64,000 nucleotides of DNA from Candidatus Kerfeldbacteria bacterium (GCA_047946875.1 CP181398.1:713041-777040); one strand, 5' to 3'. Counted from the first letter of the stretch, positions 6,096-25,308 are shown. The notes: generated by a model from the letters alone, not told the origin. A program made the numbers and translations.

Positions 6096-6728
6096 ATGTC
6101 TATTCTGCCACAAAGTAAAAAGGAATTTTATGCTTTGTTTCATCACCTCGCTGGTTTGATCTACGCGAGTTCTGCACTGTTTCATGAGCTTATCTCGGAT
6201 TCTCTGGACCCCAAGCAATCTAAGGATACAATCGCTGAGATCATTGCCCGTGAAAAGCAGGCTGATCAAACGCTTAAAGATATTGCTGAGTTGGTGTCCG
6301 GCAAGTTTGTTACTCCGTTTTCTTCCCAAGAAACGCTCCATCTGGCTGAGCTGATGGATAATATCCTTGACCAAATAGAAAACGGAGCTGATTTGATCCG
6401 TGACTACGATTTTGGCGACATTCCTCCCGAAACTGGACAGATGTCGGCATTGTTAGCTAAAGGCTGCCAAGTACTTACTGAAATGATTAAGCCGCTATCA
6501 GATTTCCGTCACCCGTTCGACATGTACGCGGAAATTCGCGAACTAGAACACAAGGCCGACGTAATAAACAAAGCGGCAATCGCGAAGTACTATCATGCGA
6601 CAAGCAATTTTGAGGAGTTCAAACGATGGTTTATCATCCGAGAGCTTATCTCTACGCAAGAGAAAGCTGTGGATGCGCTGCGCGACGTATCCAATATTCT
6701 CAGAAGGATAATAGAGAAACATGTATGA
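6096..6728 (+). CDS. DUF47/PhoU-like Pit-accessory protein (putative phosphate transport regulator)
   Basis: A ~210-aa helical protein encoded immediately upstream of, and overlapping, a PiT-family gene. This is the typical DUF47-pit arrangement. The region is GC-elevated. Confidence 0.7.
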   Translation: MSILPQSKKEFYALFHHLAGLIYASSALFHELISDSLDPKQSKDTIAEIIAREKQADQTLKDIAELVSGKFVTPFSSQETLHLAELMDNILDQIENGADLIRDYDFGDIPPETGQMSALLAKGCQVLTEMIKPLSDFRHPFDMYAEIRELEHKADVINKAAIAKYYHATSNFEEFKRWFIIRELISTQEKAVDALRDVSNILRRIIEKHV

Positions 6729-11150: not shown

Positions 11151-12053
11151 CTACTTTATTGAGCTACTTATACCAACTAATACGTCAGAAAAACTCCGAT
11201 TGTCACGATTAATACCAATTGGTAACCTAGGAATATCATTACAAGTAATAACTTTTCCTGACAATCTCTCTATCTCTTCCCATAGTTCACAACTTAAACC
11301 AATGATGAATTTGGAATATTCAACCATATAATTAGTAGGAATAGAAGCACTTTTACTAGGATTACCAAACGGTAAACAATATGGCAGAGAAATGTCCGGA
11401 TAATATGGAATAATACTATTACCCTCCATATAACCAACTGTCTTTCCTGACAATGGTACACCGATGAAAAAATCTCTCTCACAGAGCCAATCTATGACAT
11501 TATTAAATTCATAAACTGATTCAATCTCAAAAGTTGAATTTTTTCTAATAAATTGATTATTACACCAGTCTATCATAATACCGATAATACTTTTTTGAAC
11601 ATTCAAGCCTTTTTCCTTCATCAAAGATATTATCTGGTATAAAGTATCTCCGGAGAAACATCCATCATCAATAATAATAATTGGCTTGTCTTTCGGTAGA
11701 TTGTTTAACTGATCATCTATCGAGATACAACCAGGGCGGTTAGATAAGCCGATTTTTTTTAGAGTATTAATATCAGCAATTCTATTAATCTCTAAATAAC
11801 TATCAACCTCACAATATACTTGATCAATAGAAATAATAATCGCGTCGTTATTCTGTTGAATTTTCTGTTTCAATTGACTACTTAAATCTTCATAACTAAT
11901 CAATACTAATTCTGTAAACATTGAATTTAGATATTTAATTAATCGCTGCTGAATACTGACAAAAAAGTTATGATCAGGAATTTTATAATCAACCCCTCTA
12001 GTCCAGCGTTTCATCAAATATTCTAAATCTTCAGTAATAACATACCGTCTCAT
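11151..12053 (-). CDS. Phosphoribosyltransferase (PRTase)-domain protein, function unknown
   Basis: PRPP-binding-like motif IIIIDDGCFSGDTL. 300 aa. First gene of a tight minus-strand operon. Confidence 0.4.
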   Translation of the reverse strand: MRRYVITEDLEYLMKRWTRGVDYKIPDHNFFVSIQQRLIKYLNSMFTELVLISYEDLSSQLKQKIQQNNDAIIISIDQVYCEVDSYLEINRIADINTLKKIGLSNRPGCISIDDQLNNLPKDKPIIIIDDGCFSGDTLYQIISLMKEKGLNVQKSIIGIMIDWCNNQFIRKNSTFEIESVYEFNNVIDWLCERDFFIGVPLSGKTVGYMEGNSIIPYYPDISLPYCLPFGNPSKSASIPTNYMVEYSKFIIGLSCELWEEIERLSGKVITCNDIPRLPIGINRDNRSFSDVLVGISSSIK

Positions 12054-12601
12054 TGTACTCTCCTTTTTAATAAGTACTTAAACCAATATTCATGAAAAAT
12101 TCCTACAATCTGACTACTCGGAACTTTTATTCCTGTTTGCTGAAAACCTAATTTTTTATTGATTGAAATTATAGGAAAATTATCTTCTCTCATTCTTGTT
12201 AAAAGAAGTGTGGACTTACCAATATCACTCAAATGTATAAAAATATCTTGCTTAAGTAGTGTGCCCACTCCTAAATTTTGAAATTCAGGACTAACACATG
12301 TTTCTCTGAGCCAGATTAATTTACAACCCACAAATTTTTTGGGAAAAACCCCTAATATTCCACCTCTCTCATTATTTAATTCTTCAATTGTCATACTGTT
12401 CCACCAGGTTGCACCAACCACCTGACCATCAATCTCCGCAACCAAGCATTTAAATCCTGACTTTAATCTTTGAATATTCCACCGTCTTTTAACTTCTTTA
12501 ATCGATAAATCTTCATACCAAGGAAAACCAGAAAATGCTTTTCTATAAATAATTTCAATACCAATAACATCATTCACTGTATATTCTCTTATCTTCATCA
12601 T
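12050..12601 (-). CDS. GNAT family N-acetyltransferase
   Basis: Acetyl-CoA binding motif region (CVSPEFQNLGVGTLL). 4-nt overlap with the upstream gene. Confidence 0.7.
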   Translation of the reverse strand: MMKIREYTVNDVIGIEIIYRKAFSGFPWYEDLSIKEVKRRWNIQRLKSGFKCLVAEIDGQVVGATWWNSMTIEELNNERGGILGVFPKKFVGCKLIWLRETCVSPEFQNLGVGTLLKQDIFIHLSDIGKSTLLLTRMREDNFPIISINKKLGFQQTGIKVPSSQIVGIFHEYWFKYLLKRRVQ

Positions 12602-12631
12602 TAACTCCTTCTATTTATTTTTTAAAGAACT

Positions 12632-13165
12632 TTATTTGTTAACTACTTTAATCGCCATATTTACAGCTTCTGCTGGTGTTCTAGCTGATAATATCTTTAA
12701 CCTCTTTCTGCTATCTAAAAACGTACCCACTAATTTGTCGGTCCATCCCCCTGTCCCGATTAATGCAACTATTGGAATATTTAACTGATAACCAATAGCA
12801 ATCTCTGTTAGCGTTCCTGATCCTCCACTTACAGAAATAATAACGTCACATGAATTTACCAATACAAATTCCCTACCTCCACCACGCTCTAAACCGGTAA
12901 CAATGATAATGTCTGTATTACCATCCTTATCCCAAATATCTTTCTTCACCCCATAAGTTACCCCTACTGTCAGACCACCTTGTTGCTTAGCGCCTCTAGA
13001 TGCCGCCGTTGAAAGAGAATCATAATCTTTTTCTGCTCCGAAGACGGTAATATTTTTTGATTTTGCTATTAACCTACCTAACTCGAACGCTGATTTTTCG
13101 ACCTCTGAAGAATATTTAAGGTCTGCTCCAGAACCTATCACTCCAATTTGAATTTTTCTTTTCAT
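12632..13165 (-). CDS. LOG/TIGR00725-family Rossmann-fold protein (possible nucleotide N-glycosidase)
   Basis: GxGxxG N-terminus (IGVIGSG) and PGGxGTxxE-like motif (VSGGSGTLTEIA), as in LOG / lysine-decarboxylase-like proteins. Confidence 0.7.
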   Translation of the reverse strand: MKRKIQIGVIGSGADLKYSSEVEKSAFELGRLIAKSKNITVFGAEKDYDSLSTAASRGAKQQGGLTVGVTYGVKKDIWDKDGNTDIIIVTGLERGGGREFVLVNSCDVIISVSGGSGTLTEIAIGYQLNIPIVALIGTGGWTDKLVGTFLDSRKRLKILSARTPAEAVNMAIKVVNK

Positions 13166-13173
13166 ACTTTTTT

Positions 13174-13875
13174 TTAATTAATATTTATCTTCTCCATTTT
13201 GTAACAAGTAATATCCACATATCGATTTACTAATAAGGCAAAGAACTTCTCCCCCTTTATATTCACCTCTTCAAACTCTTTAAATTTTCCCTCTTTGTCC
13301 TCATAATCTTTTTTTAAAAGTTTCCCATAAACTCGAAAGAATGTTTTCTGATCTTGGCTCAAATCCTTTTTTAAAAAATCTTTAAGACTACTATATAATT
13401 TATTCTGATTTTCTACCGAATTTTTTGAACCACATTCAATCTCTACTCCACAATCTACAAACTGAGTTAATGGTCCAGGTTTCTTTAGATTCTTTGGACT
13501 CCAAATTACTATGTTCTGAAATGGCAATAAAGTTGATAATAATAAATTTTCTTTTTTTGGATTTGTTACGATTGTAAATATTCCAGTCTTAGCTGGCGTA
13601 CCATGAATATCAATAACATAGTCATATTTTTTAAATACTTGCATGAGTTCATACGCTCGACGTATTTCGTATTTAAAGCTATCTTTATTCCCCGGTGCTA
13701 CTCTATTTAAATCCGCGTCAATAAATCTTTTATTCTTTTCCAATGCCTCAGGATTTGAAATCTTCCAATCAAATCGAGATAAATTTTTTTGATCAGTAAG
13801 TTTTTTTAAGATTGGAATTGTAAACCCTTCATTACCGTGCGTTGCTGCTAAAAATAATATTTTTTTTCTTTTCAT
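13174..13875 (-). CDS. AstE/AspA-family (succinylglutamate desuccinylase / aspartoacylase-like) zinc hydrolase
   Basis: N-terminal HGNEG-type metal-binding motif (LFLAATHGNEGFT) and DIHG further on, typical of this carboxypeptidase-like family. Confidence 0.5.
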   Translation of the reverse strand: MKRKKILFLAATHGNEGFTIPILKKLTDQKNLSRFDWKISNPEALEKNKRFIDADLNRVAPGNKDSFKYEIRRAYELMQVFKKYDYVIDIHGTPAKTGIFTIVTNPKKENLLLSTLLPFQNIVIWSPKNLKKPGPLTQFVDCGVEIECGSKNSVENQNKLYSSLKDFLKKDLSQDQKTFFRVYGKLLKKDYEDKEGKFKEFEEVNIKGEKFFALLVNRYVDITCYKMEKININ

Positions 13876-13903
13876 ATTTTTTAAATTAATTTAAAAAGTA
13901 AAG

Positions 13904-15031
13904 TTATGCATCTTTAATAAGATCACACATTCCACAAGCAACACATCCTGCTTTATCAGTTGAAATTATACCCACTTTATCCATTAAACGTTTTGAAAAA
14001 TATAAAACTTCCAGAAAATCTTTCCAATTTACAGTTGGAGCAAATGGATAATTCGGAATATCTTCAAAATATCGTCCAGCTAGTGGTGAGGGAATAACCC
14101 CTATTTTAATTACTTCCTCTATACCTTGTTTGAGGCTAGCTATTGGCTCAGTTCCAACTACAAAACATGTTGACACCCTTCCAACACCAAATTTTTTTAT
14201 GGCACGTTTAAAGGACGCAATATATAAATCTCTTTTACAAAATTTATTTTTTCCGGGAATTAATTTTGCACGTACTTTTTCATCCCAACATTCTAAATTC
14301 ATCATCAAACTAGATACTCCTGAAGCAGCTAATCTATCTATCCAGTTCAAATCTTTTGGTGGAGTAATTTCTACTGCAATTTGTAATTTTGGGTATGCTC
14401 GTTTAACGGCCTCAACAACTGGTTGAATAAACTCAATACCCCTTCCATCTGAAAAAGTCATACCTCCATTTATTGTTAAACCCCCATATTGGTCTACAGG
14501 TATTTTTTTTAATGCTGAAAGTATTAAAGCAGGTTTTTTTCTAATTAAAACCAAAGATCTATTTTTTAATGATTTGTTAATTACACAAAATTGACATTGA
14601 ATGTTTTTTGAAAACAAAGCACAGTCTTCATAAATTGAAATTGCTAATTGACAGTTATGAACAGTAACGATCTGTGTGATATTAAAACCATTTACATTAA
14701 ACTTATACCATGATGGTGGTGTAAGAGCTTTGCCTCTACATAGTTCTTTATTCTTTTGAGAAATAATAATATTTCTTGAGTCCGAAGAAGCAATAGAAAC
14801 CTTTAAATCAACCTTTCTTTTTTTATAAAATGGCGCATTCACAAATAAACAATTTGAAAGTAGCATTTTTCCTCCCGAACTTAATCCACCTCTTTTTACA
14901 TTAGATGGATTTTGATCCATAAATAATTTTTCAACAGATTGTGTAAAATTAACTCCTTCACACAACATTTTTGCTTTTAATTCTATTAAATTTTTTGATT
15001 TAGTCATATTTTTATAATTTAAAAACCACAC
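13904..15031 (-). CDS. Radical SAM-like enzyme with non-canonical Cys spacing
   Basis: Cys cluster C-x11-C-x9-C-x2-C (NCQLA...EDCALFSKNIQCQFC), then a GGE-like glycine motif (TINGGMTF) ~40 aa later, then a TIM-barrel-like core and an extra C-terminal CxxCxxC (CVACGMC). Confidence 0.45.
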   Translation of the reverse strand: MWFLNYKNMTKSKNLIELKAKMLCEGVNFTQSVEKLFMDQNPSNVKRGGLSSGGKMLLSNCLFVNAPFYKKRKVDLKVSIASSDSRNIIISQKNKELCRGKALTPPSWYKFNVNGFNITQIVTVHNCQLAISIYEDCALFSKNIQCQFCVINKSLKNRSLVLIRKKPALILSALKKIPVDQYGGLTINGGMTFSDGRGIEFIQPVVEAVKRAYPKLQIAVEITPPKDLNWIDRLAASGVSSLMMNLECWDEKVRAKLIPGKNKFCKRDLYIASFKRAIKKFGVGRVSTCFVVGTEPIASLKQGIEEVIKIGVIPSPLAGRYFEDIPNYPFAPTVNWKDFLEVLYFSKRLMDKVGIISTDKAGCVACGMCDLIKDA

Positions 15032-15156: not shown

Positions 15157-15456
15157 TTATTTTAATTTTAGTCTATTGATTATTAATTGATAACCTCCTT
15201 TACCCTGGTTAATCCAATTAGCTACTCTTGCTACAGTGGTAGTGCTAACTTTTAATTTTTCTGAAATATCTCTATATGAAACACCTTTCACTATCAACTT
15301 AACCATTTGCCACCTATCACCAAGATCTGTCATTTCTTCCAAGGTACATAAATCTCTAAAAAACTTATTACATTCATCTTTGGTTTTTAATGAAAGTATT
15401 GCTTCGAATAATTCATTATTCTTCTTGACATCCCATTTAATATTTTTCTTAGGCAT
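15157..15456 (-). CDS. YerC/YecD (TrpR-like) family helix-turn-helix protein
   Basis: 99 aa. Conserved C-terminal ...YRDISEKLKVSTTTVARV... HTH typical of the TrpR-related YerC/YecD family. Confidence 0.7.
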   Translation of the reverse strand: MPKKNIKWDVKKNNELFEAILSLKTKDECNKFFRDLCTLEEMTDLGDRWQMVKLIVKGVSYRDISEKLKVSTTTVARVANWINQGKGGYQLIINRLKLK

Positions 15457-16034: not shown

Positions 16035-16437
16035 GGGAGCGTTTATAATCGACAGTGCTATCACTATAAAAATCGCAAACCATCCAATTCTATTTATATG
16101 ATGTAAAACTATTAGTAGAAATTACACAAATGCCAAATCATTTGTAAGCAATGTGAAGACTGCATTTGCTAACGCATTTACACCTTCATTTGCGCCCGTA
16201 GTTGCCTAAAACCAACTGCCATCCTGCTCTTAATGTCTGATAGAGAGATCCAGGGTGTTATAATTCAGACTAGATATCAATTTTATCCTTTTAGTAGATA
16301 TTTAAAAAACATAAAGGATCGGATTGTTGGATTTTGCTTGTTATATACCAATGATCTCAAACAAAAAATAAGCTAAGTTTGTAGAAGTTTTTATATAATA
16401 ATACTAGACAGGGGTGCGACCCCCCTCGCTTCCACCA
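16035..16437 (+). ncRNA. ssrA: tmRNA (SsrA), ~403 nt
   Basis: The 5' GGGAGCG pairs with 3' CGCTTCC, including the G3:U70 alanine identity pair. The D-loop analogue UUUAUAAUCGAC resembles E. coli AUUCUGGAUUCGAC. A T-arm AGGGG-UGCGACC-CCCCU is followed by the acceptor strand and CCA at 16435-16437. The gene sits directly downstream of smpB. A candidate tag frame ends ...AFTPSFAPVVA* with stop at 16207-16209. Confidence 0.8.
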
Positions 16438-17736: not shown

Positions 17737-17813
17737 GGAGCGGTAGTTCAGTTGGCTAGAACGCTACCCTGTCACGGTAGAGGCCGCGGGTTCAAGTCCC
17801 GTCCGCTCCGCCA
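17737..17813 (+). tRNA. tRNA-Asp (anticodon GTC)
   Basis: GGAGCGGTAGTTCAGTTGGCTAGAACGCTACCCTGTCACGGTAGAGGCCGCGGGTTCAAGTCCCGTCCGCTCCGCCA. The cloverleaf has a GTC anticodon in a CTGTCAC loop and an encoded CCA. It is close to E. coli tRNA-Asp. Confidence 0.92.
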
Positions 17814-17872
17814 CCTAGTTTGGATAATAAGACTAGGCTTGTTTTGGATATTAAAGATTCATTTATGCAAAG

Positions 17873-17916
17873 ACTTGAATTTACCTGAGCTAACAAGCGA
17901 GGGTAAATCAAAGTCC
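17873..17916 (+). other. Imperfect 14-bp-stem hairpin (GACTTGAATTTACC ... GGTAAATCAAAGTC) between the tRNA and its 3'-end duplicate
   Basis: Inverted repeat read directly from the sequence. Function unknown. Confidence 0.35.
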
Positions 17917-17953
17917 CGCCTGCCCCGTAAAAATGAACGGAGTGAATGACTGC

Positions 17954-17970
17954 GGGGTCCGCTCCGCCAC
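17954..17970 (+). repeat. Duplicated tRNA-Asp 3' end (GTCCGCTCCGCCAC, 14/14 identical), att-like remnant
   Basis: An exact 14-nt copy of the tRNA 3' acceptor/T-stem region lies 140 bp downstream of the intact tRNA. Confidence 0.5.
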
Positions 17971-18080
17971 TAAGCTTATAAAAATAAACCTAGTTTTTTT
18001 GTAGTATAAAAAGAAAAACACCATTTCTCTATCCGAAGATAAAAAAATGGTGTTATGAAACTTACTTATGAAATAGCAGT

Positions 18081-18494
18081 TCATCGCATTATCCAGACAG
18101 CTTCCATTGTAGCTATCACTTTACCACTTCTTGTTGTGGCTTCTCCCTTCATGATGATTTCATCGCCTGTCTTTTTACCTTCTCTATCTATCCAGCAAGT
18201 AATAACAAATGGCGATTTCATACTAAGTACATTAATGAACTTAACTGTCTGAGAAGCAGTTATAGCACTATTTATGCCATAACAGAAATAAATACACATG
18301 CCGACTGTATCATCAAATAATGCACCAATAGCACCCCCATGCGCAAACTTGTAAAAACTCAATGCTTCTGGATTAAGATTTGTGATTTCTACACTATACT
18401 TCTTCGTTTTGGCATTAAATTTACCAAGTTTATCAGCACCCAGTAATTTGGCTAATCGCGTTAGCTCTGTTGGTAGGCCCTCATATTTACCCAC
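18081..18494 (-). CDS. PaaI/hotdog-fold thioesterase
   Basis: HGGAIGALFD motif and a ~137-aa hotdog size. Confidence 0.65.
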   Translation of the reverse strand: MGKYEGLPTELTRLAKLLGADKLGKFNAKTKKYSVEITNLNPEALSFYKFAHGGAIGALFDDTVGMCIYFCYGINSAITASQTVKFINVLSMKSPFVITCWIDREGKKTGDEIIMKGEATTRSGKVIATMEAVWIMR

Positions 18495-18520
18495 AACTCC
18501 CCATTTCTTTGATTATATTG

Positions 18521-18555
18521 TCATTGTACATTTAACTTACATTGTACATTTAACT
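18521..18555 (+). repeat. Tandem direct repeat TGTACATTTAACTTAC x2 (3-nt spacer)
   Basis: Exact 16-nt duplication in the intergenic region upstream of the island genes. Confidence 0.6.
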
Positions 18556-18608
18556 TACTATATATATAGTATATATTGATATTTATGTCAATATGAGAGT
18601 GTATAATA

Positions 18609-18637
18609 TTGACCAACATCTAATCCTTTGGTAAGGT
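18609..18637 (+). promoter_or_regulatory. Promoter TTGACC-17-TAAGGT. It shares a ~40-bp near-identical block (AACATCTAATCCTTTGGTAAGGT.ATTTAATAT) with the promoter at 20681.
   Basis: A good -35 hexamer, 17-nt spacer and -10-like hexamer. The conserved block repeats at 20687-20720. Confidence 0.5.
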
Positions 18638-18699
18638 GATTTAATATAAAGAATAGAAATAAACATAGCAAATCTTAAAAACTTAAAAAGGAGGCAGAA

Positions 18700-19854
18700 A
18701 TGCAAAAATCGATTTTTATTGGGTTTAATTTTGGTTCTACCAATCTCAAACTGTGGGCAGTTGATTTAAATGAATATCTTAAAACTGCTCAAGTTATTGA
18801 CAGGGGTGAAATTGAGTTGACTAAAGACAATTCTATTGGAAATTTGACTGAGGCGGTTCGTCCTTTCATTTTTAACAATAATTGTTTTTCCCCCGACGAA
18901 ATTGGAGTAATTGGCGTACGATCCGCCATTCTAAAAGGATTACTACCTGGAGTGATTCATATAGATCATACATATATGAATGCACTGGATCAACCAGAAC
19001 TAATCGGTACAAAACACAGAACCAATGACTGCCCCAGGGTCGCATATCCAATCGCGACTGAACTTGATATTCCAATTTATACCGCAGACGCAATCTCATC
19101 AATTAGCCAAAATTATTGGGATATCGCTCGAACAACCGGAATTCCTGGAATATTTCGTGAAGGCTACGCTCACTATCTCAGCCTACGCTATCTTATTTAT
19201 TTAATCGCAAAAAGAAATAATATCAAAACCAATCAAGTTAACTGTGTATTAGTACATGGTGGTGGTGGAGCAAGTATAGCTGCTTGTGTCGGTGGAGATA
19301 TTGTCGTAACCAATAATCCAAATGAATGGAATCCATTTGGTGAACGAGCTGGAGCCTTACCTGCTCTAGAGGGTTCTAAGTGGCTATGGGATAAATTCAA
19401 AAAAGGGTCAACTATTGAAGAAGTGCAAAAAATACTCCTCAAAAAATGTGGCTATGTAGGTCATACCGGAGCTGAGAATTTTGAACAACTTCTCGACATG
19501 GTTCGTAAATGCGATAAAAATGCAACACATATTTTTAAAACTATGTGTTACCAATTTGGATGTGAAATCAACCAACGGGCACTAGAAGTAGAATCGGCAA
19601 TTACACAAAAAGATGAATTCCAAGGAGTATTCTGCACTGGAGGAATGTTCAAGGCTATGGAATTTATTCGGGGAGTTAATGTAAATGGCTCGACTATCGA
19701 TGGTATTTCAAAATGGCTTGAAACACAAAACAGAACTTCAGTATTTTCCGACGAATTTTCTGGAGAGTATGAGACTGAAGCACTAACCACACAAGTTCTT
19801 CGTGCAATAAAAGGAGATATTAAATCTCAATCATATATAATTCCAAACCTTTAA
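18700..19854 (+). CDS. ASKHA-superfamily kinase, butyrate/acetate-kinase-like
   Basis: N-terminal FIGFNFGSTNLK resembles the acetate/butyrate kinase INPGSTSTK. VLVHGGGGASIAACVGGDIV resembles the butyrate kinase HLGxGxSxAA segment. C-terminal FCTGGMF resembles FTGGIGEN. 384 aa. Confidence 0.5.
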   Translation: MQKSIFIGFNFGSTNLKLWAVDLNEYLKTAQVIDRGEIELTKDNSIGNLTEAVRPFIFNNNCFSPDEIGVIGVRSAILKGLLPGVIHIDHTYMNALDQPELIGTKHRTNDCPRVAYPIATELDIPIYTADAISSISQNYWDIARTTGIPGIFREGYAHYLSLRYLIYLIAKRNNIKTNQVNCVLVHGGGGASIAACVGGDIVVTNNPNEWNPFGERAGALPALEGSKWLWDKFKKGSTIEEVQKILLKKCGYVGHTGAENFEQLLDMVRKCDKNATHIFKTMCYQFGCEINQRALEVESAITQKDEFQGVFCTGGMFKAMEFIRGVNVNGSTIDGISKWLETQNRTSVFSDEFSGEYETEALTTQVLRAIKGDIKSQSYIIPNL

Positions 19855-19872
19855 TATTTGCTTAATAATCAT

Positions 19873-19907
19873 AGACGACCACTCTTTAACTTTGGTCGTC
19901 TTTTTTA
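19873..19907 (+). terminator. Rho-independent terminator (AGACGACC...GGTCGTCT + T6). A loose TTGACT-17-TAAGCT promoter for the next gene follows.
   Basis: Perfect 8-bp stem and U-run. TTGACT at 19908-19913. Confidence 0.65.
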
Positions 19908-19981
19908 TTGACTATATTTATACTCTTTGTTAAGCTAATTAAAATACAAAACAAAAATGGAACTTTAAAATTATTGGAGGG

Positions 19982-20602
19982 GTGGCAAATATGGTCAAAT
20001 TATTTTTTATGCTAGGTTCAATGTTAATACTTGGCTGGGCAGCATTACATACCGGTCATTTCAAATCATATGTTAATTCAGCTCCATACGCGATGGGATT
20101 TATAAAGCTCTTCTTTCTCGGCACGCTGGGTGAGCTTATAAAATATCGTATCTCAAAAAAAACCTGGAAACTCGATTACATTCTGGAAAGAGCTATCTTT
20201 TGGGGTTTATTTGGAATATGGTTTACTAATGCATTCCCTTTTTTTGCTGGAGGAACAGGAGCAATAATCACCAAAGGTCTTTGGTGGGATAATTTCCAAG
20301 CATTATCTTCAAGTTTATGGATTAACATCTTCGGTGGATATGCTTTATATATGATGATCATACACGAATATTGTAATCATCTAATAAAAACAAGGTATCA
20401 TGGTTGGCGTTTAAGTAACTTTGCAAAAAATGTGGACCGTCATTTTATTTTTTGCTTTCTTCCAATGACTCTTATCTTCTGGGTTTGTGCACATACAATC
20501 ACCTTCTCATTACCTCCTGATTTACAAATTCTTAGTGCAGCAGTTTTAGCAATAGCACTGGGTATATTCCTGAGTGTAGGAAGAAGAATAAAAACAGCTT
20601 GA
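19982..20602 (+). CDS. Hypothetical polytopic membrane protein (206 aa)
   Basis: Multiple hydrophobic helices. No recognisable family. Confidence 0.5.
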   Translation: MANMVKLFFMLGSMLILGWAALHTGHFKSYVNSAPYAMGFIKLFFLGTLGELIKYRISKKTWKLDYILERAIFWGLFGIWFTNAFPFFAGGTGAIITKGLWWDNFQALSSSLWINIFGGYALYMMIIHEYCNHLIKTRYHGWRLSNFAKNVDRHFIFCFLPMTLIFWVCAHTITFSLPPDLQILSAAVLAIALGIFLSVGRRIKTA

Positions 20603-20651
20603 ATAAAATTAATCAAGCATTACATAGACAGTAATAATAATAATCATATAA

Positions 20652-20709
20652 TAGGGTCAATTTATGACCCTATTTTTTTATTGACTAACATCTAATCCTT
20701 TGGTAAGGT
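20652..20709 (+). promoter_or_regulatory. Terminator hairpin (AGGGTCA...TGACCCT + T8) immediately followed by promoter TTGACT-17-TAAGGT
   Basis: Hairpin 20653-20679. The -35 is at 20681-20686 and the -10-like at 20704-20709. It carries the same conserved block as the 18609 promoter. Confidence 0.55.
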
Positions 20710-20768
20710 AATTTAATATCAAAAACAGAAATAAATAACGTTAATTTTACAGAAACGAGGTGTTTTAA

Positions 20769-22490
20769 ATGGCTACAAAGAAACGTAAAAAAATTGCCCT
20801 AATATCAGTGGCAAACAAAAAAGGTATTATCACGTTTGCCCGATGGCTCGTAAAGCTCGGTTACATGATACTTGCCTCAGGCGGTACAGCTAAGAAGCTT
20901 AAACAAGCTGGGATCCCTGTAACTGATACTTCTGACTTTATCGGAGATGCGCATGCTAAGATGATCAATCGTATCGCCACAAACAAGAAACATAAAATCC
21001 CACCGCGGGTTTTAAAAGCGATTCGCAAAGAAATTGGTGGCATCATTCTAAGTCACCGTGTCGCGACCCTATATCCACAGATACATGGAGGAATTTTAGC
21101 ACAGGACACTGAGCAACATCTTAATGATCTGGCTAAAATCTGCGCCCAGTGGATTGATATTGTCTGTGTTGACTTCTATCCACTTGATGGCGAAATAGCT
21201 CGTCCAGGGTCAGATCGCTTCTCTGTAATAGAGAAAATTGATGTCGGTGGACCAACTATGGTCAATGCTACAGCTAAATCAGCTGAAGATGGACGAACTG
21301 TGATCTGTGATCAAGTTGATCGTATACGGGTTATTAAAGCGATCAAAAAACATGGCGAAGTTCCTCTAAAACTCCGTCGTGAGCTGGCTGAAAAAGCCTT
21401 TTTCAAAGTGGCTGAATACTATCTCTCAGCTTCTCGATACTTAAGTGGTGGAAAGTACAATGGCGTCTTAGGTCGCCTACGCTCACTATGTAAGTACGGG
21501 GAAAATGCTGCTCAGACACCAGCCGGCTTATATGAGGTTGATGATAATGATTCTTTAGCACTACATAAATTCGAGATGATCGAAGGATGTGCACCAAGCT
21601 TCATTAATTTTACCGACTATAACCGTGGTCTTCAGGGTATTACCCATGCCATTGCTGCATTCCGTAAAAATAAATGTAAAGCAAAATACTTTGCTTTCAT
21701 TTACAAACATGGTAATGCATGTGGCGGTGCTTATGGTAATAACAAAGCCGAAGTATTAAGGAAAGCAATAGCCGGCAACCCACGAGCAGCCTGGGGTGGG
21801 ATTATCATTGCCAACTTTACGATTGGAGCAAAAGAAGCGGAGATAATCAGGACTCACAAAACCAAAAAGGTGGATCGCATAATAGATGGTATTCTTGCGC
21901 CATCAATTTCCATACCAGCAATTGAACGACTCAAGCGCGCTAAAGGTGCTTGTCGTATGTTGGTTAATCCAGCTCTCAAGTCCCCCTCTATGGACACTGG
22001 AAAAATCATCCACACGCTCCGCGGTACATTCGTACTGCAACCAAACTATGAGTATGTATTTGATTTTAACCATCCAAAAGTTAAGCAATTTGGAAAAATG
22101 ACTCTGCGACAAAAGTCTGATTTCCTCCTGGCTTGGGCGATCTGCGCTACTTCAAGTAGCAATACGATCACAATAGTTAATAACTGCATGCTAATCGGTA
22201 ATGGTACTGGTCAGGACGATCGAGTCGGAGCAGCCCAGCTTGCAACAAAGAAAGCACGTACTTTCAAGCATATGCTAAATGGATCTGTCTGCTGTAGTGA
22301 CTCATTCTTCCCATATGTTGATGGTGTAGCAACCCTTGTCCGCGCTGGTATTATCGGCATACTAACCGTTTCTGGATCCAGAATTAAAGGTGCTGGAGAC
22401 AAAGCAGTTAAGAAATTCCTTATTAAGAAGAATGTCTTACTAGTATGGATTCCGGTAGCCATCGGTCGTATCTTTTACGGTCACTGTTAA
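20769..22490 (+). CDS. purH: Bifunctional AICAR transformylase / IMP cyclohydrolase (PurH family), divergent long form
   Basis: N-terminal MGS-like IMPCH domain (ALISVANKKG...ASGGTAKKL...HGGILA). AICARFT motifs IDVGGPTMVNATAKS, KYGENAAQ, YKHGNACGGAYG, AWGGIIIANF, IGNGTGQDDRV and SDSFFPYVDG all align to E. coli PurH. Confidence 0.85.
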   Translation: MATKKRKKIALISVANKKGIITFARWLVKLGYMILASGGTAKKLKQAGIPVTDTSDFIGDAHAKMINRIATNKKHKIPPRVLKAIRKEIGGIILSHRVATLYPQIHGGILAQDTEQHLNDLAKICAQWIDIVCVDFYPLDGEIARPGSDRFSVIEKIDVGGPTMVNATAKSAEDGRTVICDQVDRIRVIKAIKKHGEVPLKLRRELAEKAFFKVAEYYLSASRYLSGGKYNGVLGRLRSLCKYGENAAQTPAGLYEVDDNDSLALHKFEMIEGCAPSFINFTDYNRGLQGITHAIAAFRKNKCKAKYFAFIYKHGNACGGAYGNNKAEVLRKAIAGNPRAAWGGIIIANFTIGAKEAEIIRTHKTKKVDRIIDGILAPSISIPAIERLKRAKGACRMLVNPALKSPSMDTGKIIHTLRGTFVLQPNYEYVFDFNHPKVKQFGKMTLRQKSDFLLAWAICATSSSNTITIVNNCMLIGNGTGQDDRVGAAQLATKKARTFKHMLNGSVCCSDSFFPYVDGVATLVRAGIIGILTVSGSRIKGAGDKAVKKFLIKKNVLLVWIPVAIGRIFYGHC

Positions 22491-22510
22491 TAAAACACAA
22501 CTATAAACCT

Positions 22511-22575
22511 AAAGACGATTCAATTATGAATCGTCTTTTTTTATTATTGACGAAATAATCACTCTTTGATAAGGT
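22511..22575 (+). promoter_or_regulatory. Terminator (AAGACGATTC...GAATCGTCTT + T-run) followed by promoter TTGACG-17-TAAGGT
   Basis: Hairpin 22512-22542. The -35 is at 22547-22552 and the -10-like at 22570-22575. Confidence 0.55.
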
Positions 22576-22639
22576 ATTATAATATCAAAAAATGTAAATA
22601 AACATTGTAACTTAAAAACAGAAAGAAAAGGAGCATAAA

Positions 22640-23644
22640 ATGAAAGCTCTCATTAGTACCAAACACTTTAACTTGTCGAATACTTACCCATTCTCTGAAG
22701 GAAAAGTAAGGGACATTTATAATCTGGATGAGCAACTATTGATCATCGCTACTGATCGTATTTCGGCATTTGATCATGTATTACCAACTCCCGTACCAGG
22801 ACGTGGCATAGTATTAACCGAAATGACTGTTAATTGGATAGATTTGCTGACAAAAGATATTGCCAATCTCAAAACCAAACTGCCAATTACTAATCATCTG
22901 GTTCATACCGATGTGGGAGAACTTCCTGAAATATTTCATCCGTTTGCTGATGAACTTACTGGTCGTTTCATGGTCGTAGAAAAATGTGACCCTATTCCAG
23001 CTGAATTAATCATTCGTGGGAATATTACAGGATCTCTATGGAAAGCTTATAAAAAAGCCGTTAAAGAAAATCCTGAAGCAACTACAGTAAACATCCTTGG
23101 TCATGAATTACCAACCGACCTTCAGGAGTCCGAAGAATTTCCTCATCCATTATTTACGCCATCAACCAAGGCGGAAGCTGGTCAACATGATGAAAATATC
23201 AGCTATGAACAAATGGTGATTATCTTCACCGAATGGTTGAAGAATAAAGAATATGATGTTACTGCCGAGGATCTAGCAATAAGCTGTCTAGATCTCTCAC
23301 TCATGCTCTTTACCAAAGCACGTGACAAAGCCAAAAAACTTGGCATAATCATCGCTGACACGAAGTTCGAATTCGGTCTCAAGGTTGTAGAAGGTATATT
23401 ATATCTTGTAATTATCGATGAGATCCTATCCTCTGACTCATCTCGTTACTGGCCGGCCGATGAATTTGCAATTGGCAAAAGCCAAAACAGCTATGATAAA
23501 CAGATTGTTAGAGATTATCTCAGCAAAGAACTCGAATGGGATGGGACTCTTCCAATTCCAGTTATACCTGATGAAATCGTTAAACAAATTATCGATCGTT
23601 ATCAAGAATGTATGACAATTTTATTCGATGAAAATCTTGACTGA
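22640..23644 (+). CDS. purC: SAICAR synthetase (PurC family), long form
   Basis: GKVRDIY...LLIIATDRISAFD is the PurC signature. 334 aa. Confidence 0.85.
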   Translation: MKALISTKHFNLSNTYPFSEGKVRDIYNLDEQLLIIATDRISAFDHVLPTPVPGRGIVLTEMTVNWIDLLTKDIANLKTKLPITNHLVHTDVGELPEIFHPFADELTGRFMVVEKCDPIPAELIIRGNITGSLWKAYKKAVKENPEATTVNILGHELPTDLQESEEFPHPLFTPSTKAEAGQHDENISYEQMVIIFTEWLKNKEYDVTAEDLAISCLDLSLMLFTKARDKAKKLGIIIADTKFEFGLKVVEGILYLVIIDEILSSDSSRYWPADEFAIGKSQNSYDKQIVRDYLSKELEWDGTLPIPVIPDEIVKQIIDRYQECMTILFDENLD

Positions 23645-23655
23645 TTAACATCTTC

Positions 23656-23724
23656 AAAGCGGCCCTAAAATAGGACCGCTTTTTTTATTACTCCCTTGAC
23701 AAAACAATGACAAAATGTTAGTAT
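23656..23724 (+). promoter_or_regulatory. Terminator (AGCGGCCCT...AGGACCGCT + T7) followed by consensus promoter TTGACA-17-TAGTAT
   Basis: Hairpin followed by a U-run. The -35 TTGACA is at 23696-23701 and the -10 TAGTAT at 23719-23724. Confidence 0.55.
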
Positions 23725-23839
23725 CATTAGTTATTGTTTGTAACTGAACTTTGACATAAACGCCGATGGTATGTGAAATATTTGTATCTCACATATTTTC
23801 ATCGGGAAATAAAAACTCCAAAAGGAACTGGAGACAAGA

Positions 23840-25222
23840 ATGAATGCAAAACAAGGAACTGCATTAGCAACTGACAAGATTGTCACTCATTTCAAACCGC
23901 ACGCAGATGAATTTGTGGCAATATATTTACTGCGCCGTTTTGGCCAGGAATTATTCCCAGGAATTTCTGATGCAAAAATCATTACCAAGGACGGTAGTGT
24001 AAAACTTTACAACCGTAAAGGATGGTTGAAAGTTGGTATCGGTGAAGGAATTTTTGATGAACATGGTCAACTCAATTGTTGTTGCGCTGATTTGGTCGCT
24101 CAATACCTAGGCATTGATCATTTGCCAAAAATTATATTGCTACTAAAACACATTCGTCGTGGTGACCTTTTTGGAAAAAGTACCACCTACGATCTAAGTG
24201 AATGCATCAAAAACCTCAATCATGACGGATGGTCGCCTGCCAAAATAGAAAAATGGTTAGCAACTTTCCTAGATTGTTATTTTGATGATAAAACTATCAT
24301 CAAAGGATCTTCCGTTGATGACGATCACCAAGGATACATTTTCCCAATCAGTGATGGAGAAACAAGAACGTTGTTTTCTAACAACACTTTATACCGTGAC
24401 TGGTTGAAAAAGAAAAACCTAAAAAGCAATCAACCTGAAGTTAGCAAACTAACTAACAATCTTAACCAATTCACCAAACGACCTCCTTCAAAAATATTTG
24501 ATATTTGTGAAGGAGCATACTTGATAGCAGTCTATCTTGGTAAACTCGAGTCATTTACTTGGACTTCAGCAATATTTGAAGCCAGTAAAAACTATCAGCA
24601 AGAATTCCTTGAAGCTTGTGATATCGTCAAACCTATGAAAGTGATTGTAGTTAGGCCTTACGATAATTGCAATAAAGCTAATATTATCAGAATACTTGCA
24701 ATCGACAGGACAATAAATAGACAAGGAAACAAATGTCTCCTTAATGCAGCCAAGTTTCTCAATAAGAATTTAGATGTATTGGTTATCCAACAACCGAATG
24801 GAAGCATCCAAGTTTTTATTACAAATATTCATCTCATGCATCTATGGCCGATGATTGTCCGCGCAATCAGACTGGAAGAGATGGTAGTCAATGACATGCC
24901 TATAGATAGCATTATCACTGACTATGATGTACTTGCTCAGACGGGCAGTCTAACCGAATTACCTCAATTGCCTCTGTGGTATTTCCCAGCAAACGGGAAT
25001 GGTGACGGATGGGCGCTATTAAACGGTGCACTGACGTTACCAAATGTCATCCCAAGTAATATCTATTTTGATGAAATTGTTAACATCATTAAGACAATGA
25101 TATTCTACAATGATGACAAAAATACATGGCAAAACTATGCGGATAATCGTATAGATGAATATCATGATTCCTGCAACAAACCGTCTACCGGTAATTGCTT
25201 GGGTGATTATTCAGCTCTTTAA
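23840..25222 (+). CDS. Hypothetical protein (460 aa), Cys-containing, possibly a DHH-like phosphoesterase
   Basis: N-terminal THFKPHADEFVA loosely resembles the DHH motif I (HxxPDxDxxxS). This is weak, and no other family signature was seen. Confidence 0.4.
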   Translation: MNAKQGTALATDKIVTHFKPHADEFVAIYLLRRFGQELFPGISDAKIITKDGSVKLYNRKGWLKVGIGEGIFDEHGQLNCCCADLVAQYLGIDHLPKIILLLKHIRRGDLFGKSTTYDLSECIKNLNHDGWSPAKIEKWLATFLDCYFDDKTIIKGSSVDDDHQGYIFPISDGETRTLFSNNTLYRDWLKKKNLKSNQPEVSKLTNNLNQFTKRPPSKIFDICEGAYLIAVYLGKLESFTWTSAIFEASKNYQQEFLEACDIVKPMKVIVVRPYDNCNKANIIRILAIDRTINRQGNKCLLNAAKFLNKNLDVLVIQQPNGSIQVFITNIHLMHLWPMIVRAIRLEEMVVNDMPIDSIITDYDVLAQTGSLTELPQLPLWYFPANGNGDGWALLNGALTLPNVIPSNIYFDEIVNIIKTMIFYNDDKNTWQNYADNRIDEYHDSCNKPSTGNCLGDYSAL

Positions 25223-25263
25223 CTAATTAACTACTGCAAAATAGCAGTAATAATATATAACCA

Positions 25264-25308
25264 AAAAGACCTAGGTTTTTACCAACTAGGTCTTTTTTTT
25301 AATTAGCT
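25264..25308. terminator. Bidirectional intrinsic terminator (AAAGACCTAGG...CCTAGGTCTTT) with an A-run before and a T-run after
   Basis: A perfect 11-bp stem lies between convergent genes: 23840 on the plus strand and 25309 on the minus strand. Confidence 0.6.

Follow-up and report, generated by a model that had tools for sequence, protein, structure and literature searches.

The region from 17954 to 25308 of the 64-kb stretch of DNA analyzed (the window), from the small genome of a Candidatus Kerfeldbacteria (Patescibacteria) bacterium, keeps its flanks in relatives while its interior differs between them. It is therefore best read, with a probability of about 0.68, as a variable slot next to tRNA-Asp that holds self-contained pur modules, in which ordinary late purine enzymes have been reshuffled. 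Pfam and NCBIfam searches place a thioesterase, a butyrate kinase (Buk)-like kinase, a membrane protein, PurH, PurC, and a 460-aa protein in series after the tRNA gene. The gene order and domain calls of the first-pass annotation hold in an HMM check (4HBT, Acetate_kinase, MGS with AICARFT_IMPCHas, and SAICAR_synt); of the two proteins it left unassigned, the 460-aa one has no Pfam or NCBIfam match and the 206-aa one no family. The same annotation had suggested an undescribed or accessory system; the accessory character stands, as reshuffled metabolism, and the idea of a new system does not.

The modules are monocistronic and share a plan consisting of a promoter, an A-rich leader, a Shine-Dalgarno sequence, the coding sequence, and an intrinsic terminator. 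A hairpin with a T-run follows each gene, as proposed at the outset for five of them (folding energies between -12.7 and -20.6 kcal/mol), and the region has an excess of terminator-like sites (18 observed versus 7.1 expected). The layout is modular and insulated, as first described, and is not an operon. The absence of PurB, PurE/K, and the earlier enzymes from the window was also borne out: no pur genes besides purH and purC were found among window ORFs of at least 150 aa, and tblastn gave no match to PurE within the 64 kb.

The left boundary of the slot is the tRNA-Asp (GTC) gene at 17737–17813 on the plus strand (ARAGORN; Rfam tRNA, 70.4 bits). The left flank (smpB-tmRNA-infC-rpmI-rplT-tRNA-Asp) is kept in relatives, and so is the right flank, where a FecR-like gene accompanies the 460-aa gene; tRNA-Asp is likewise found after rplT in the related loci L002/3, L005, L006, and L010. 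The rplT genes of two sister genomes, L008 and L010, are 96–98% identical to that of the window, and both sisters are colinear with the window in the flanks and non-colinear in the interior. DNA colinearity with both stops at 17813–17828 and restarts at 22520 with L008 and at 23688 with L010. Nucleotide identity to the sisters across the colinear right part, which takes in purC, the 460-aa gene, and all DNA beyond them, is 75–83%. Between these flanks L008 carries an unknown gene, purH, purE, and purC, while L010 (a 5-kb contig that crosses repeats, such that mis-assembly is possible) has no pur genes and passes directly from tRNA-Asp to the 460-aa gene. The earlier proposal of accessory, horizontally exchanged content at tRNA-Asp is upheld by the differences between L008 and L010 within the same flanks and by the xenologous purH described below.

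A degenerate copy of the 3' part of tRNA-Asp, composed of a T-arm-like segment and an acceptor end with a small hairpin interrupting, lies at 17910–17970 on the plus strand and matches no Rfam family. An exact 11-nt repeat of the tRNA 3' end, CCGCTCCGCCA, is found at 17959–17969 (chance expectation, 0.08). This repeat and the adjacency to a tRNA gene would fit a reading in which the whole of 17.9–25.3 kb is a single foreign island, recently integrated at tRNA-Asp in a site-specific manner, as would the raised GC3, the differing content of the sister genomes, and the tRNA-end repeats and GIY-YIG remnant at the same place in L010. However, such an origin is very unlikely. The tRNA-end duplicate brackets only ~145 bp, so that the gene set is not enclosed, and it is conserved: L005 and L006 carry related GC-rich spacers that end in the same copy. 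Searches revealed no integrase or recombinase gene in or beside the region, no island-flanking repeat, and no PHROG matches. Moreover, the DNA from purC rightward is colinear with the sisters, as noted above, and the pur genes hold the same position in relatives with 60–70% housekeeping identity. Of the tRNA-adjacent acquisition first proposed, the duplicated tRNA end and the exchanged accessory content stand, while membership of the 460-aa gene does not.

Base composition is mildly elevated. The GC content is 37.2% in 17954–25308 versus 33.6% elsewhere in the window, and the region ranks with the most GC-rich stretches of its length there, as 18 of 567 sliding windows are at least as high. 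Single genes range from 35.7 to 43.0%, with purH (43%, the highest in the region) alone above 40%; the contrast of 40–45% against ~30% initially claimed is consequently reduced to a mild rise. GC3 is 0.26–0.36 in the region genes versus 0.16–0.26 in most neighbors, and the pur modules have elevated GC3 relative to their neighbors in the window, L005, L006, and L008. The PhoU/PHO4 segment at 6.1–7.9 kb has a GC content above that of 17954–25308.

Four of the modules are linked by a common promoter, TTGAC-N14-yTTTGnTAAGGT-nAnnTAATAT, with an extended -10 element and a conserved downstream box. The sites, all on the plus strand, precede the kinase gene (TTGACC-17-TAAGGT with a TG extension, 18609–18637), the membrane-protein gene (TTGACT-17-TAAGCT, 19908–19936), purH (TTGACT-17-TAAGGT, 20681–20709), and purC (TTGACG-17-TAAGGT, 22547–22575). 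These assignments agree with those made initially, including the separate TTGACA-17-TAGTAT promoter of the 460-aa gene. The four sites belong to a four-copy 53-nt repeat, one 71-nt pair of which is 85% identical (direct-repeat family D1/D2, which includes the kinase promoter), and there are no others in the 64 kb; the exact CTTTGNTAAGNT is confined to these module promoters. The motif is clade-specific and recurs in relatives: 16 of 18 matches in 1.54 Mb lie 48–69 nt upstream of purH, purC, purE, or kinase starts, in this clade only. The kinase leader, which extends to 18699, is A-rich (58% A) and unstructured (-0.8 kcal/mol), and 18606–18705 shares 79% identity with the purC promoter-leader of L008. 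A generic promoter scan did not exceed chance (60 found versus 52.8 expected), and the promoters rest on repetition and conservation rather than on that scan. The shared element suggests that the four plus-strand modules are co-regulated as a small regulon, as distinct from an operon. Similarity between promoters within one genome could also reflect recent duplication instead of selection; this cause is disfavored because the promoter is conserved across genomes. No PurR homologue was found, and the PRTase-like protein encoded nearby has no PuR_N domain.

PurH is encoded at 20769–22490 on the plus strand (Pfam MGS and AICARFT_IMPCHas; terminator at 22511–22538) and belongs to a Patescibacteria/Nitrospirota PurH clade. 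Bifunctional AICAR formyltransferase/IMP cyclohydrolases of this type use 10-formyl-THF to turn AICAR into FAICAR, from which they form IMP. The protein retains the KH(G)NxCG, SN, GQxxR, and SDxFFP motifs and aligns with PurH structures in the PDB, but it carries a ~30-aa insert in the MGS domain and scores 303.7 bits against the NCBIfam equivalog PRK00881, under the cutoff of 402. The conserved Lys of the cyclohydrolase RVKTLHP motif is Ala in the window protein; 80 of the 86 family members have Val there. Given the sub-cutoff score and the missing Lys, the cyclohydrolase activity is putative.

The divergence of PurH could be taken to indicate a nucleotide-derived natural product (formycin-, pyrazofurin-, or coformycin-like), with PurC- and PurH-like enzymes acting on a non-purine scaffold. 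The sub-equivalog score and the Lys-to-Ala change would suit this reading, as would the match of the IMP-cyclohydrolase part to ForH of formycin biosynthesis (PDB 6nko, E=5e-19) and the proximity of an unusual kinase, a thioesterase, and a membrane protein of no family. Canonical PurH structures are far ahead of ForH, however (E=1e-49), PurC lies above its housekeeping equivalog cutoff, and scaffold-forming enzymes are absent. The Lys substitution is also family-wide in Patescibacteria/Nitrospirota PurH proteins with ordinary pur neighborhoods. Natural product synthesis is extremely improbable. Across 87 Patescibacteria/Nitrospirota loci, neighbors of the PurH family include purB (20), purC (24), purM (12), and guaB (6).

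The ancestry of PurH differs from that of its surroundings. While rplT (98%), infC (93%), an NHL-repeat protein (93%), and PurC (83%) are highly similar to their L008 counterparts, PurH shares merely 46% amino acid identity with the L008 protein. In contrast, PurH is 85% identical (76% at the nucleotide level) to that of the distant L005, whose housekeeping proteins are 63–78% identical to those of the window. Judging from these identities, the purH module is a xenologous replacement. Homology to L005 spans 20674–22622, from the purH promoter to the next promoter. Similarly, L023 and L005 share a 105-nt promoter-leader (87% identical), but identity between the purH alleles fused to it is 43%; RVKTLHP, the canonical form, is found in one allele and RVATLYP in the other.

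PurC is a long-type, 334-aa SAICAR synthetase encoded at 22640–23644 on the plus strand (Pfam SAICAR_synt, 200.8 bits; terminator at 23656–23682). It clears the NCBIfam equivalog PRK13961 (301.8 bits versus a cutoff of 251) and is by this score a canonical SAICAR synthetase, the enzyme that produces SAICAR from CAIR, Asp, and ATP. At 83% identity to the L008 protein, purC is vertically inherited relative to this sister. In L002/3, L005, L006, L008, and L013, purE is a neighbor of purC or forms a fusion with it. The view that purC and purH without pur neighbors mark a special shunt or small-molecule pathway is countered by the purE located between or fused to them in relatives and by the purB, purC, purM, and guaB neighbors of the PurH family. 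The full de novo pathway to IMP is reported for approximately one third of CPR genomes (PMC11608272). If the organism lacks purF/D/N/L/M/E/K/B, PurC and PurH would have no de novo substrates, and the description as ordinary purine biosynthesis would be wrong.

The hotdog-fold (4HBT) thioesterase, encoded on the minus strand at 18081–18494 (Pfam 4HBT, 23.3 bits versus a cutoff of 20.6; terminator at 18017–18054), is lineage-specific, with no homologue in the 92 loci examined. The kinase at 18700–19854 (plus strand; terminator at ~19873–19901) is a divergent carboxylate kinase of the butyrate/acetate kinase (ASKHA) family, with 34.4 bits to Pfam Acetate_kinase and 130 bits to NCBIfam butyrate kinase, short of the cutoff of 222. 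It aligns with Thermotoga maritima Buk2 (1saz, E=1e-18), retains the HGGGG.SI and ER.G.LP motifs, and has only two weak homologues (27–29%) in 5.8e9 proteins. Kinases of the same family lie upstream of purH in L003/L015 and L023. The 206-aa polytopic membrane protein at 19982–20602 (plus strand; hydrophobic segments; terminator at 20650–20674) has no above-threshold match in Pfam, NCBIfam, or PHROG and fits no transporter family; it is missing from all 92 loci examined and is likewise lineage-specific.

The first-pass annotation had envisaged a salvage shunt for a host without de novo purines: an AICAR/SAICAR-type riboside or intermediate would enter through the membrane protein and be phosphorylated by the kinase, after which PurC and PurH would carry it to IMP. 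Its sole positive support is that the kinase and membrane genes bear the purH/purC promoter; the same-family kinases ahead of purH elsewhere, the window without purE, and the absence of de novo nucleotide synthesis from many Patescibacteria (PMC11809585) are also compatible with it. A further point in its favor is that one sister genome is without all of these genes, and the kinase, membrane, and pur genes are consequently dispensable. Salvage by this route is nonetheless unlikely. Butyrate and acetate kinases, with which the kinase aligns and whose motifs it keeps, phosphorylate carboxylates and not ribosides, so that a nucleoside kinase is not supported; import lacks a transporter family match in Pfam or NCBIfam, and the membrane protein occurs in no relative. 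L005 and L008, the closest relatives with purH and purC, have purE and neither the kinase nor the membrane gene. Furthermore, PurC needs CAIR and Asp, its product SAICAR still requires PurB, and the PurH family adjoins purB, purM, and guaB in other genomes.

Alternatively, the Buk-like kinase could be a new late-purine partner that activates formate (as formyl phosphate) or a carboxylate (CAIR or bicarbonate), replacing a folate-dependent or PurK/PurE-type step that these reduced genomes would lack. Several purine steps (PurK, PurT, PurC, and PurP) use acyl-phosphate or carboxyphosphate chemistry, the catalytic motifs are kept, purE is missing from the window, and a Buk/Ack-family kinase precedes purH under a pur-type promoter in three lineages. 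On the other hand, the three kinases are mutually ~24% identical and the kinase is missing from most relatives with purH and purC; the association could reflect promoter capture in a permissive slot, and we know of no biochemical precedent for such a role in this family. A purine step for the kinase is therefore quite unlikely. Its occurrence ahead of purH in three lineages still hints at a functional link, for which the variable-slot reading leaves no account.

The 460-aa gene (23840–25222, plus strand) is a conserved right-flank gene rather than the cassette member initially proposed, as it is kept even where the pur genes are missing (L010). Its promoter (TTGACA-17-TAGTAT with TGT before the -10 element, 23696–23724, plus strand) is kept in all seven homologous loci. 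A structured 5' leader follows at 23759–23839 on the plus strand (fold z-score, -3.2). Hairpin 1 (23763–23805) has a bulged 14-bp stem that is invariant at its base and covaries at its top, and a GGGAAA linker follows; hairpin 2 (23816–23833) pairs the Shine-Dalgarno GGAG. Among seven sequences, compensatory changes occur in 7 of 8 upper-stem pairs, hairpin-1 cells are 100% paired, and 0 of 500 shuffles match. A covariance model (R1) found matches in 1.57 Mb solely upstream of this gene family, and the leader has no Rfam family. The leader probably controls translation by sequestering the Shine-Dalgarno sequence; no alternative pairing coupling the two hairpins was evident. The encoded protein, of an unannotated family with ~1200 clusters, is a divergent DHH/DHHA1-fold phosphoesterase, and judging from this fold its substrates are probably nucleotides or very short oligonucleotides. 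A bidirectional terminator at 25263–25297 is common to this gene and the convergent FecR-like gene.

A mechanism can be proposed for the variable slot. The repeated terminator-promoter-leader junctions would probably act as homology arms, at which recombination between related genomes would allow modules to be gained, lost, or replaced. The window purH would have been replaced by one from a lineage resembling L005 and higher in GC; purE, which lies between purH and purC in relatives, would have been lost, and one sister genome would have dropped every pur module. The kinase and membrane-protein modules, beside which the thioesterase gene lies divergently, would be lineage-specific riders that took on the pur-type promoter, and the mild rise in GC and GC3 would be the trace of module turnover.

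Several components can be compared with known systems. Relative to canonical PurH/ATIC (PDB 4ehi, 3zzm, 1g8m), the window PurH has the same two domains, the same AICAR-formyltransferase motifs, and pur neighbors in relatives, but differs in its sub-cutoff score, MGS insert, replaced RVKTLHP lysine, and change of SVSDK to SVANK. Small translational riboswitches and protein-binding leaders likewise place a conserved 5' hairpin, whose base and bulge are invariant and whose top covaries, before a hairpin that pairs the Shine-Dalgarno sequence; the leader described here is without an Rfam match and occurs before one gene family only (seven examples). In contrast to DHH/DHHA1 phosphoesterases (NrnA nanoRNase/pAp phosphatase, PggH, GdpP, RecJ, and MYG1-like proteins), the 460-aa protein has a ~100-aa helical insertion, DEH instead of DHH, and no detectable similarity to Pfam DHH/DHHA1 or any PDB chain. 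The Escherichia coli PurR boxes and the Bacillus/Lactococcus PurBox/PurR system also give each of several separately transcribed purine genes a copy of one short cis-element, always in the same place with respect to the promoter, an arrangement that, there as here, implies common control without an operon. The present element (yTTTGnTAAGGT-nAnnTAATAT) overlaps the -10 element and transcription start and resembles neither; here the modules are adjacent, have their own terminators, and include non-purine genes.

The locus as a whole resembles integron cassette arrays in its single-gene units, varying content, one fixed site, and repeated junction sequences. Integron cassettes are promoterless, bear attC sites, and depend on IntI, whereas the units here have their own promoters and terminators and no attC sites or integrase. 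With tRNA-linked genomic islands it shares variable, compositionally deviant content after a tRNA, a duplicated tRNA 3' end, and sisters that differ; unlike such islands, it is without an integrase, its repeats bracket a short spacer only, and turnover proceeds module by module. This module-wise turnover, with breakpoints at promoter/terminator junctions, suggests homologous recombination as opposed to the site-specific kind.

The locus downstream of tRNA-Asp (17737-17813) is accessory and horizontally reshuffled, and it consists of ordinary purine genes, organized as modules in a way that resembles a regulon, together with two riders (non-purine genes). It is not a new kind of system, and its enzymes are ordinary. 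Profile searches against Pfam and NCBIfam support the gene calls of the first-pass annotation, which are a 4HBT thioesterase (18081-18494, minus strand; a weak 4HBT match in Pfam), a kinase of the acetate/butyrate kinase family (18700-19854), a membrane protein (19982-20602), PurH (20769-22490), PurC (22640-23644), and a 460-aa protein (23840-25222). The 206-aa membrane protein was not assigned to a family by either database. The anatomy first described is largely right, including the claim that other pur genes are lacking, as ORF and sequence searches of the window found no purE, purB, or others. The GC content of 40-45% was overstated: the computed value for the region is 37.2% compared with 33.6% in the remainder of the window, and purH is the sole gene in the region to reach 43%. 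Only 18 of 567 sliding windows of the same length are as GC-rich as the region, and the third-position GC (GC3) of its genes is 0.26-0.36 versus about 0.16-0.26 in most neighbors. A pair of PhoU-like and PHO4 phosphate-transporter genes at 6-8 kb (6096-7869) exceeds the region and is the most GC-rich in the window (GC 0.44, GC3 0.41-0.47). These two proteins share only 25% and 41% identity with their counterparts in the related locus L005, compared with 76-78% for the flanking LeuRS and glycosyltransferase, and the pair looks like another replaced cassette. The window belongs to contig SWBX01001791.1, from a metagenome-assembled genome of Candidatus Kerfeldbacteria (Patescibacteria/CPR). A description of the locus was not found in the literature on purine genes in Kerfeldbacteria or CPR.

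PurC is a canonical SAICAR synthetase, with a full-length match to SAICAR_synt (Pfam, 200.8 bits) and a score against the NCBIfam equivalog PRK13961 (301.8 bits) that exceeds the cutoff of 251. PurH contains two domains, with Pfam matches to MGS (45.6 bits) at the N-terminus and AICARFT_IMPCHas (160.7 bits) at the C-terminus. Its scores fall below the curated NCBIfam equivalog cutoffs (PRK00881, 303.7 versus 402 bits; TIGR00355, 275.3 versus 528), yet this divergent protein can still be aligned end to end to solved PurH structures. The formyltransferase residues K313-H314 (KHxNxCG), S464-N465 (SN), Q482/R485 (GQxxR), and S510-P515 (SDxFFP) are kept in the window PurH, and the motif residues are kept in 84-93 of 93 family members. 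The roles of the Lys-His dyad and of the SN, GQxxR, and SDxFFP residues are established for ATIC. Additional cyclohydrolase residues are kept as well, namely the Tyr of (N/D)xYP, the Asp of IDxGG, and the Lys of AAK. Lys66 of ATIC, located in the cyclohydrolase RVKTLHP loop, has been named a conserved residue (PMC9525906). This lysine is replaced in the window PurH, where the loop reads RVATLYP (residue A99), and the 86 clade sequences carry Val (80), Ala (3), or Lys (3) at this position. The loop found clade-wide in the Patescibacteria/Nitrospirota PurH (loci L003-L093) is HRVVTLSR, where canonical PurH has GRVKTLHP. This PurH clade without the cyclohydrolase lysine is a point of interest.

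Nucleotide synthesis is usually said to be missing in Patescibacteria. The first-pass annotation took the non-adjacent steps catalyzed by PurC and PurH as a sign of a special pathway, either a salvage shunt or a route to a small molecule, and three lines of evidence do not bear this out. First, the window-type PurH clade, which is widespread in Patescibacteria and present also in Nitrospirota, has recurrent neighbors when genes are clustered across 87 of its loci: purC (24 loci), purB (20; an adenylosuccinate-lyase-type Lyase_1 gene, mostly adjacent to purH), purM (12), maf (11), and guaB (6). Because purC, purB, purM, and guaB recur, the PurH family sits within ordinary neighborhoods of purine genes. 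Second, the closest relatives carry a PurE-like gene, either lying between purH and purC or forming a fusion with purC. Third, a survey of 399 CPR genomes reported the whole de novo pathway to IMP in ~32% of them (PMC11608272), and the non-adjacent steps are therefore no evidence for a special pathway.

The genes are arranged as modules. A hairpin and T-run follow all six genes, as first proposed for five of them; the hairpins fold at -12.7 to -20.6 kcal/mol, and the TTGAC of the next promoter starts directly where the T-run of the preceding terminator ends. One 53-nt element is repeated before the kinase, membrane, purH, and purC genes, with 85% identity across 71 nt between the kinase and purH copies. 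The core sequence within it, CTTTGNTAAGNT, has exactly four occurrences in the 64-kb window, each at one of the four module promoters. The element (TTGACn-N14-yTTTGnTAAGGT-nAnnTAATAT) comprises a consensus -35, an extended TG, an unusual TAAGGT -10, and then a conserved box, and is followed by an unstructured leader of ~50 nt (48-60% A) and a strong Shine-Dalgarno sequence. The proposal that each of the five plus-strand genes has its own promoter holds, while that of the 460-aa gene (TTGACA-17-TAGTAT) differs from this pur-type element. The pur-type motif has 18 matches in 1.54 Mb of fetched loci, and 16 of these, all within this clade, sit 48-69 nt upstream of purH, purC, purE, a kinase gene, or a 393-aa gene in the sister locus L008. 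One cis-element is thus present before every member gene and kept across species, as in a regulon. A ZTP-like or other riboswitch before the pur modules was considered and rejected, as there is no Rfam match at E up to 1 and the leaders are A-rich and unstructured. The locus supplies a testable, clade-specific promoter/operator common to its modules, in organisms for which almost nothing is known on gene regulation.

A Trp-repressor-family protein of 99 aa (15157-15456, minus strand; E = 3e-26) is encoded divergently from smpB, and its position is kept in L002 and L008. This syntenic gene is a candidate for the regulator acting at the pur-type promoters. A PurR-type regulator was also considered and rejected, as the nearby 300-aa PRTase-like protein lacks a PuR_N domain. 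A run of five minus-strand genes (11151-15031) encodes PRTase-CE-like (300 aa), GNAT (183 aa), SLOG cluster4/LDcluster4 (177 aa), AstE/AspA-like (233 aa), and radical-SAM-like (375 aa) proteins. The run is partly kept in L006 and L008 and may be a nucleotide-centered system.

Comparison with related loci suggests how the modules move. Directly upstream of the region are, in order, smpB, tmRNA, infC, rpmI, rplT, and tRNA-Asp, and this left flank is common to relatives, as is a right flank made up of the 460-aa gene, a convergent FecR/Glucodextran_B gene, and an NHL-repeat gene. The tmRNA gene (16035-16437) is matched by Rfam (84.8 bits, E = 3e-32) and was not reported by ARAGORN on the window. 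The five-gene cassette of the first-pass annotation is not a constant set in relatives; it is the variability of the content between the same flanks that is confirmed. The slot between tRNA-Asp and the 460-aa gene holds a kinase gene, purH, and a purC::purE fusion in L003/L015; purH, purE, and purC in L005; purH and purC::purE in L006/L014; and purH followed by purC::purE on the opposite strand in L013. The sister locus L008 holds an unknown 393-aa gene, purH, a 55-aa ORF, purE, and purC, while the other sister, L010, has no pur genes, its slot being filled by ~0.7 kb in which tRNA-end repeats accompany a GIY-YIG remnant. The 393-aa protein of L008 (4807-5988) is encoded first after tRNA-Asp, in place of the window kinase, behind a pur-type promoter, and matches no Pfam or PHROG family.

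The sister status of these loci is reflected in the identities of rplT (98% for L008, 96% for L010), infC (93%), and the NHL-repeat protein (93%) to the window. DNA colinearity with both ends at the tRNA (17813-17828) and resumes at 22520 in L008 and at 23688 in L010. Comparison with L008 gives 83% identity for PurC, in line with a sister relationship, but only 46% for PurH. In contrast, PurH shares 85% amino acid and 76% nucleotide identity (20674-22622) with L005, where housekeeping proteins reach only 63-78%, and the L005-homologous segment starts with the purH promoter and ends inside the following promoter-leader. A comparable break is seen between L023 and L005, as their 105-nt promoter-leaders are 87% identical up to the start codon while the purH genes behind them are only 43% identical (canonical RVKTLHP type in L023 versus RVATLYP type). 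Additionally, the GC3 of pur modules is above that of their neighbors in L005, L006, and L008. The slot is a site where single-gene modules are gained, lost, and replaced, with breakpoints at repeated junctions. The source of the window purH is most likely a higher-GC, L005-like lineage, the direction of transfer that we infer. Loss of purE is expected because near-identical promoters flank it in L008 and could recombine; recombination between them, the mechanism we infer, would delete purE. The portable promoter-leader junctions and the xenology of purH between sisters are points of interest. Late purine genes behave as accessory, exchangeable units inside a single genus: the flanks stay the same while the genes they enclose may be carried, swapped, or missing. 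This bears on how these symbionts tune host dependence.

The rider stretch of thioesterase, kinase, and membrane genes (17971-20672) is lineage-specific and absent from all 92 fetched loci, except for same-family kinases that precede purH in L003/L015 and L023 and share only ~24% identity. A search of 5.8 billion proteins turned up just two weak homologues (27-29%) of the window kinase. It scores above the cutoff for Pfam Acetate_kinase (34.4 versus 22 bits) and below those for NCBIfam butyrate kinases (130.3 versus 222 and 114.3 versus 289). Alignment to butyrate kinase 2 (Buk2) indicates that NxGST, VR, HGGGGxSI, and ERxGxLP are kept, and the protein is therefore probably an active carboxylate kinase. 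Kinases of this family recur ahead of purH. The window kinase might conceivably act in purine chemistry. Its promoter-leader shares 79% identity with the one in front of L008 purC, a resemblance that suggests promoter capture. The divergent thioesterase/kinase intergenic region contains a perfect tandem 18-nt duplication (18522-18557; two copies of CATTGTACATTTAACTTA) followed by an AT palindrome.

The first-pass annotation also proposed tRNA-linked horizontal acquisition. The variable content and deviant composition stand, as L008 and L010 vary between identical flanks and GC3 is 0.26-0.36 versus about 0.2, while an integrase and element-wide tRNA-end repeats were not found. No integrase or recombinase domain is present among the window ORFs (Pfam, NCBIfam), and the only tRNA-end repeat copy (17959-17969, exact) lies 145 bp from the tRNA, within a stretch that duplicates the 3' part of the tRNA in degenerate form. 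A phage origin was rejected, with no PHROG match for the thioesterase, kinase, membrane, 460-aa, or L008 393-aa protein. Degenerate tRNA 3'-end copies are found in the spacers after tRNA-Asp in the window (17910-17970), L005 (9743-9905), and L010 (1477-2155). The spacers of L005 and L006 are GC-rich, ~160 nt, strongly folding, and related to that of the window; neither the window nor the L005 spacer matches a known RNA family. In L010, 28-nt repeats (CTCCGCCATGCTACCATTCGGTGCATGA) surround the GIY-YIG nuclease remnant, and small GIY-YIG ORFs also occur between tmRNA and infC in L002/L003 and L006.

The 460-aa gene was initially grouped with the cassette. This grouping is not supported: all seven close homologues are convergent with a FecR-like gene at the same site, including in the pur-less L010, and the gene therefore lies outside the slot. 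The protein and its seven homologues have no Pfam or NCBIfam match even at E up to 10, a PDB sequence search gave no match, and EGFR matches from PDB profile searches of the family are spurious. An AlphaFold model from 7 sequences was poor (pLDDT 60.7) and was superseded by one from a 60-sequence alignment, and the predicted structure has a two-domain DHH + DHHA1 fold. The variant motifs HxxPHxDE and FDEH are invariant in the family, while DxD/D/DHH/D/GGGH was not detected by the family profile. The protein represents an unannotated DHH-fold family of ~1200 clusters.

The leader of this gene (23759-23839) is kept in 7/7 homologous loci. Hairpin 1 is bulged and has 14 bp; its base (CCGRUGR / UCAUCGG) is invariant and its top covaries throughout. 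It is followed by a GGGAAA linker and then by hairpin 2, in which the Shine-Dalgarno sequence is base-paired and which is likewise present in 7/7 sequences. Compensatory double changes occur in 7/8 upper-stem pairs (among 7 sequences only). No cell of hairpin 1 is unpaired. In the test against slid registers, pairing reaches 95.5% of cells compared with 30-52%; none of 500 shuffles reached the observed values. A covariance model matches only the 7 training loci, all before this gene family, in 1.57 Mb searched, and there is no Rfam match. A metagenome-wide search for CGCCGRTGR-N18-45-ATCGGGAAA returned at least 120 matches, and those listed were all chance matches in GC-rich coding DNA with no hairpin. 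These comparative data make the leader a promising candidate cis-regulatory RNA, specific to this gene. This new covarying, Shine-Dalgarno-sequestering RNA and the DHH-fold family are further points of interest and, with the PurH clade lacking the cyclohydrolase lysine, testable items from the locus.

A tentative reading, to which we give a probability of roughly three in ten, would join these observations. These Patescibacteria would exchange genes in units of promoter-gene-terminator modules, and the slot would be an integrase-free, integron-like cassette array. Homologous recombination would swap coding sequences, such as radically different purH alleles and the Buk-like kinase rider, while the promoter-leader junctions in front of them stay conserved. 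The leader of the DHH gene would be a new riboswitch-type element. If this is true, swapped coding sequences would plug directly into one shared regulatory circuit. The tRNA-Asp slot resembles an integron in that an array of cassettes is located at a fixed site, and differs from an integron in that it has no integrase.
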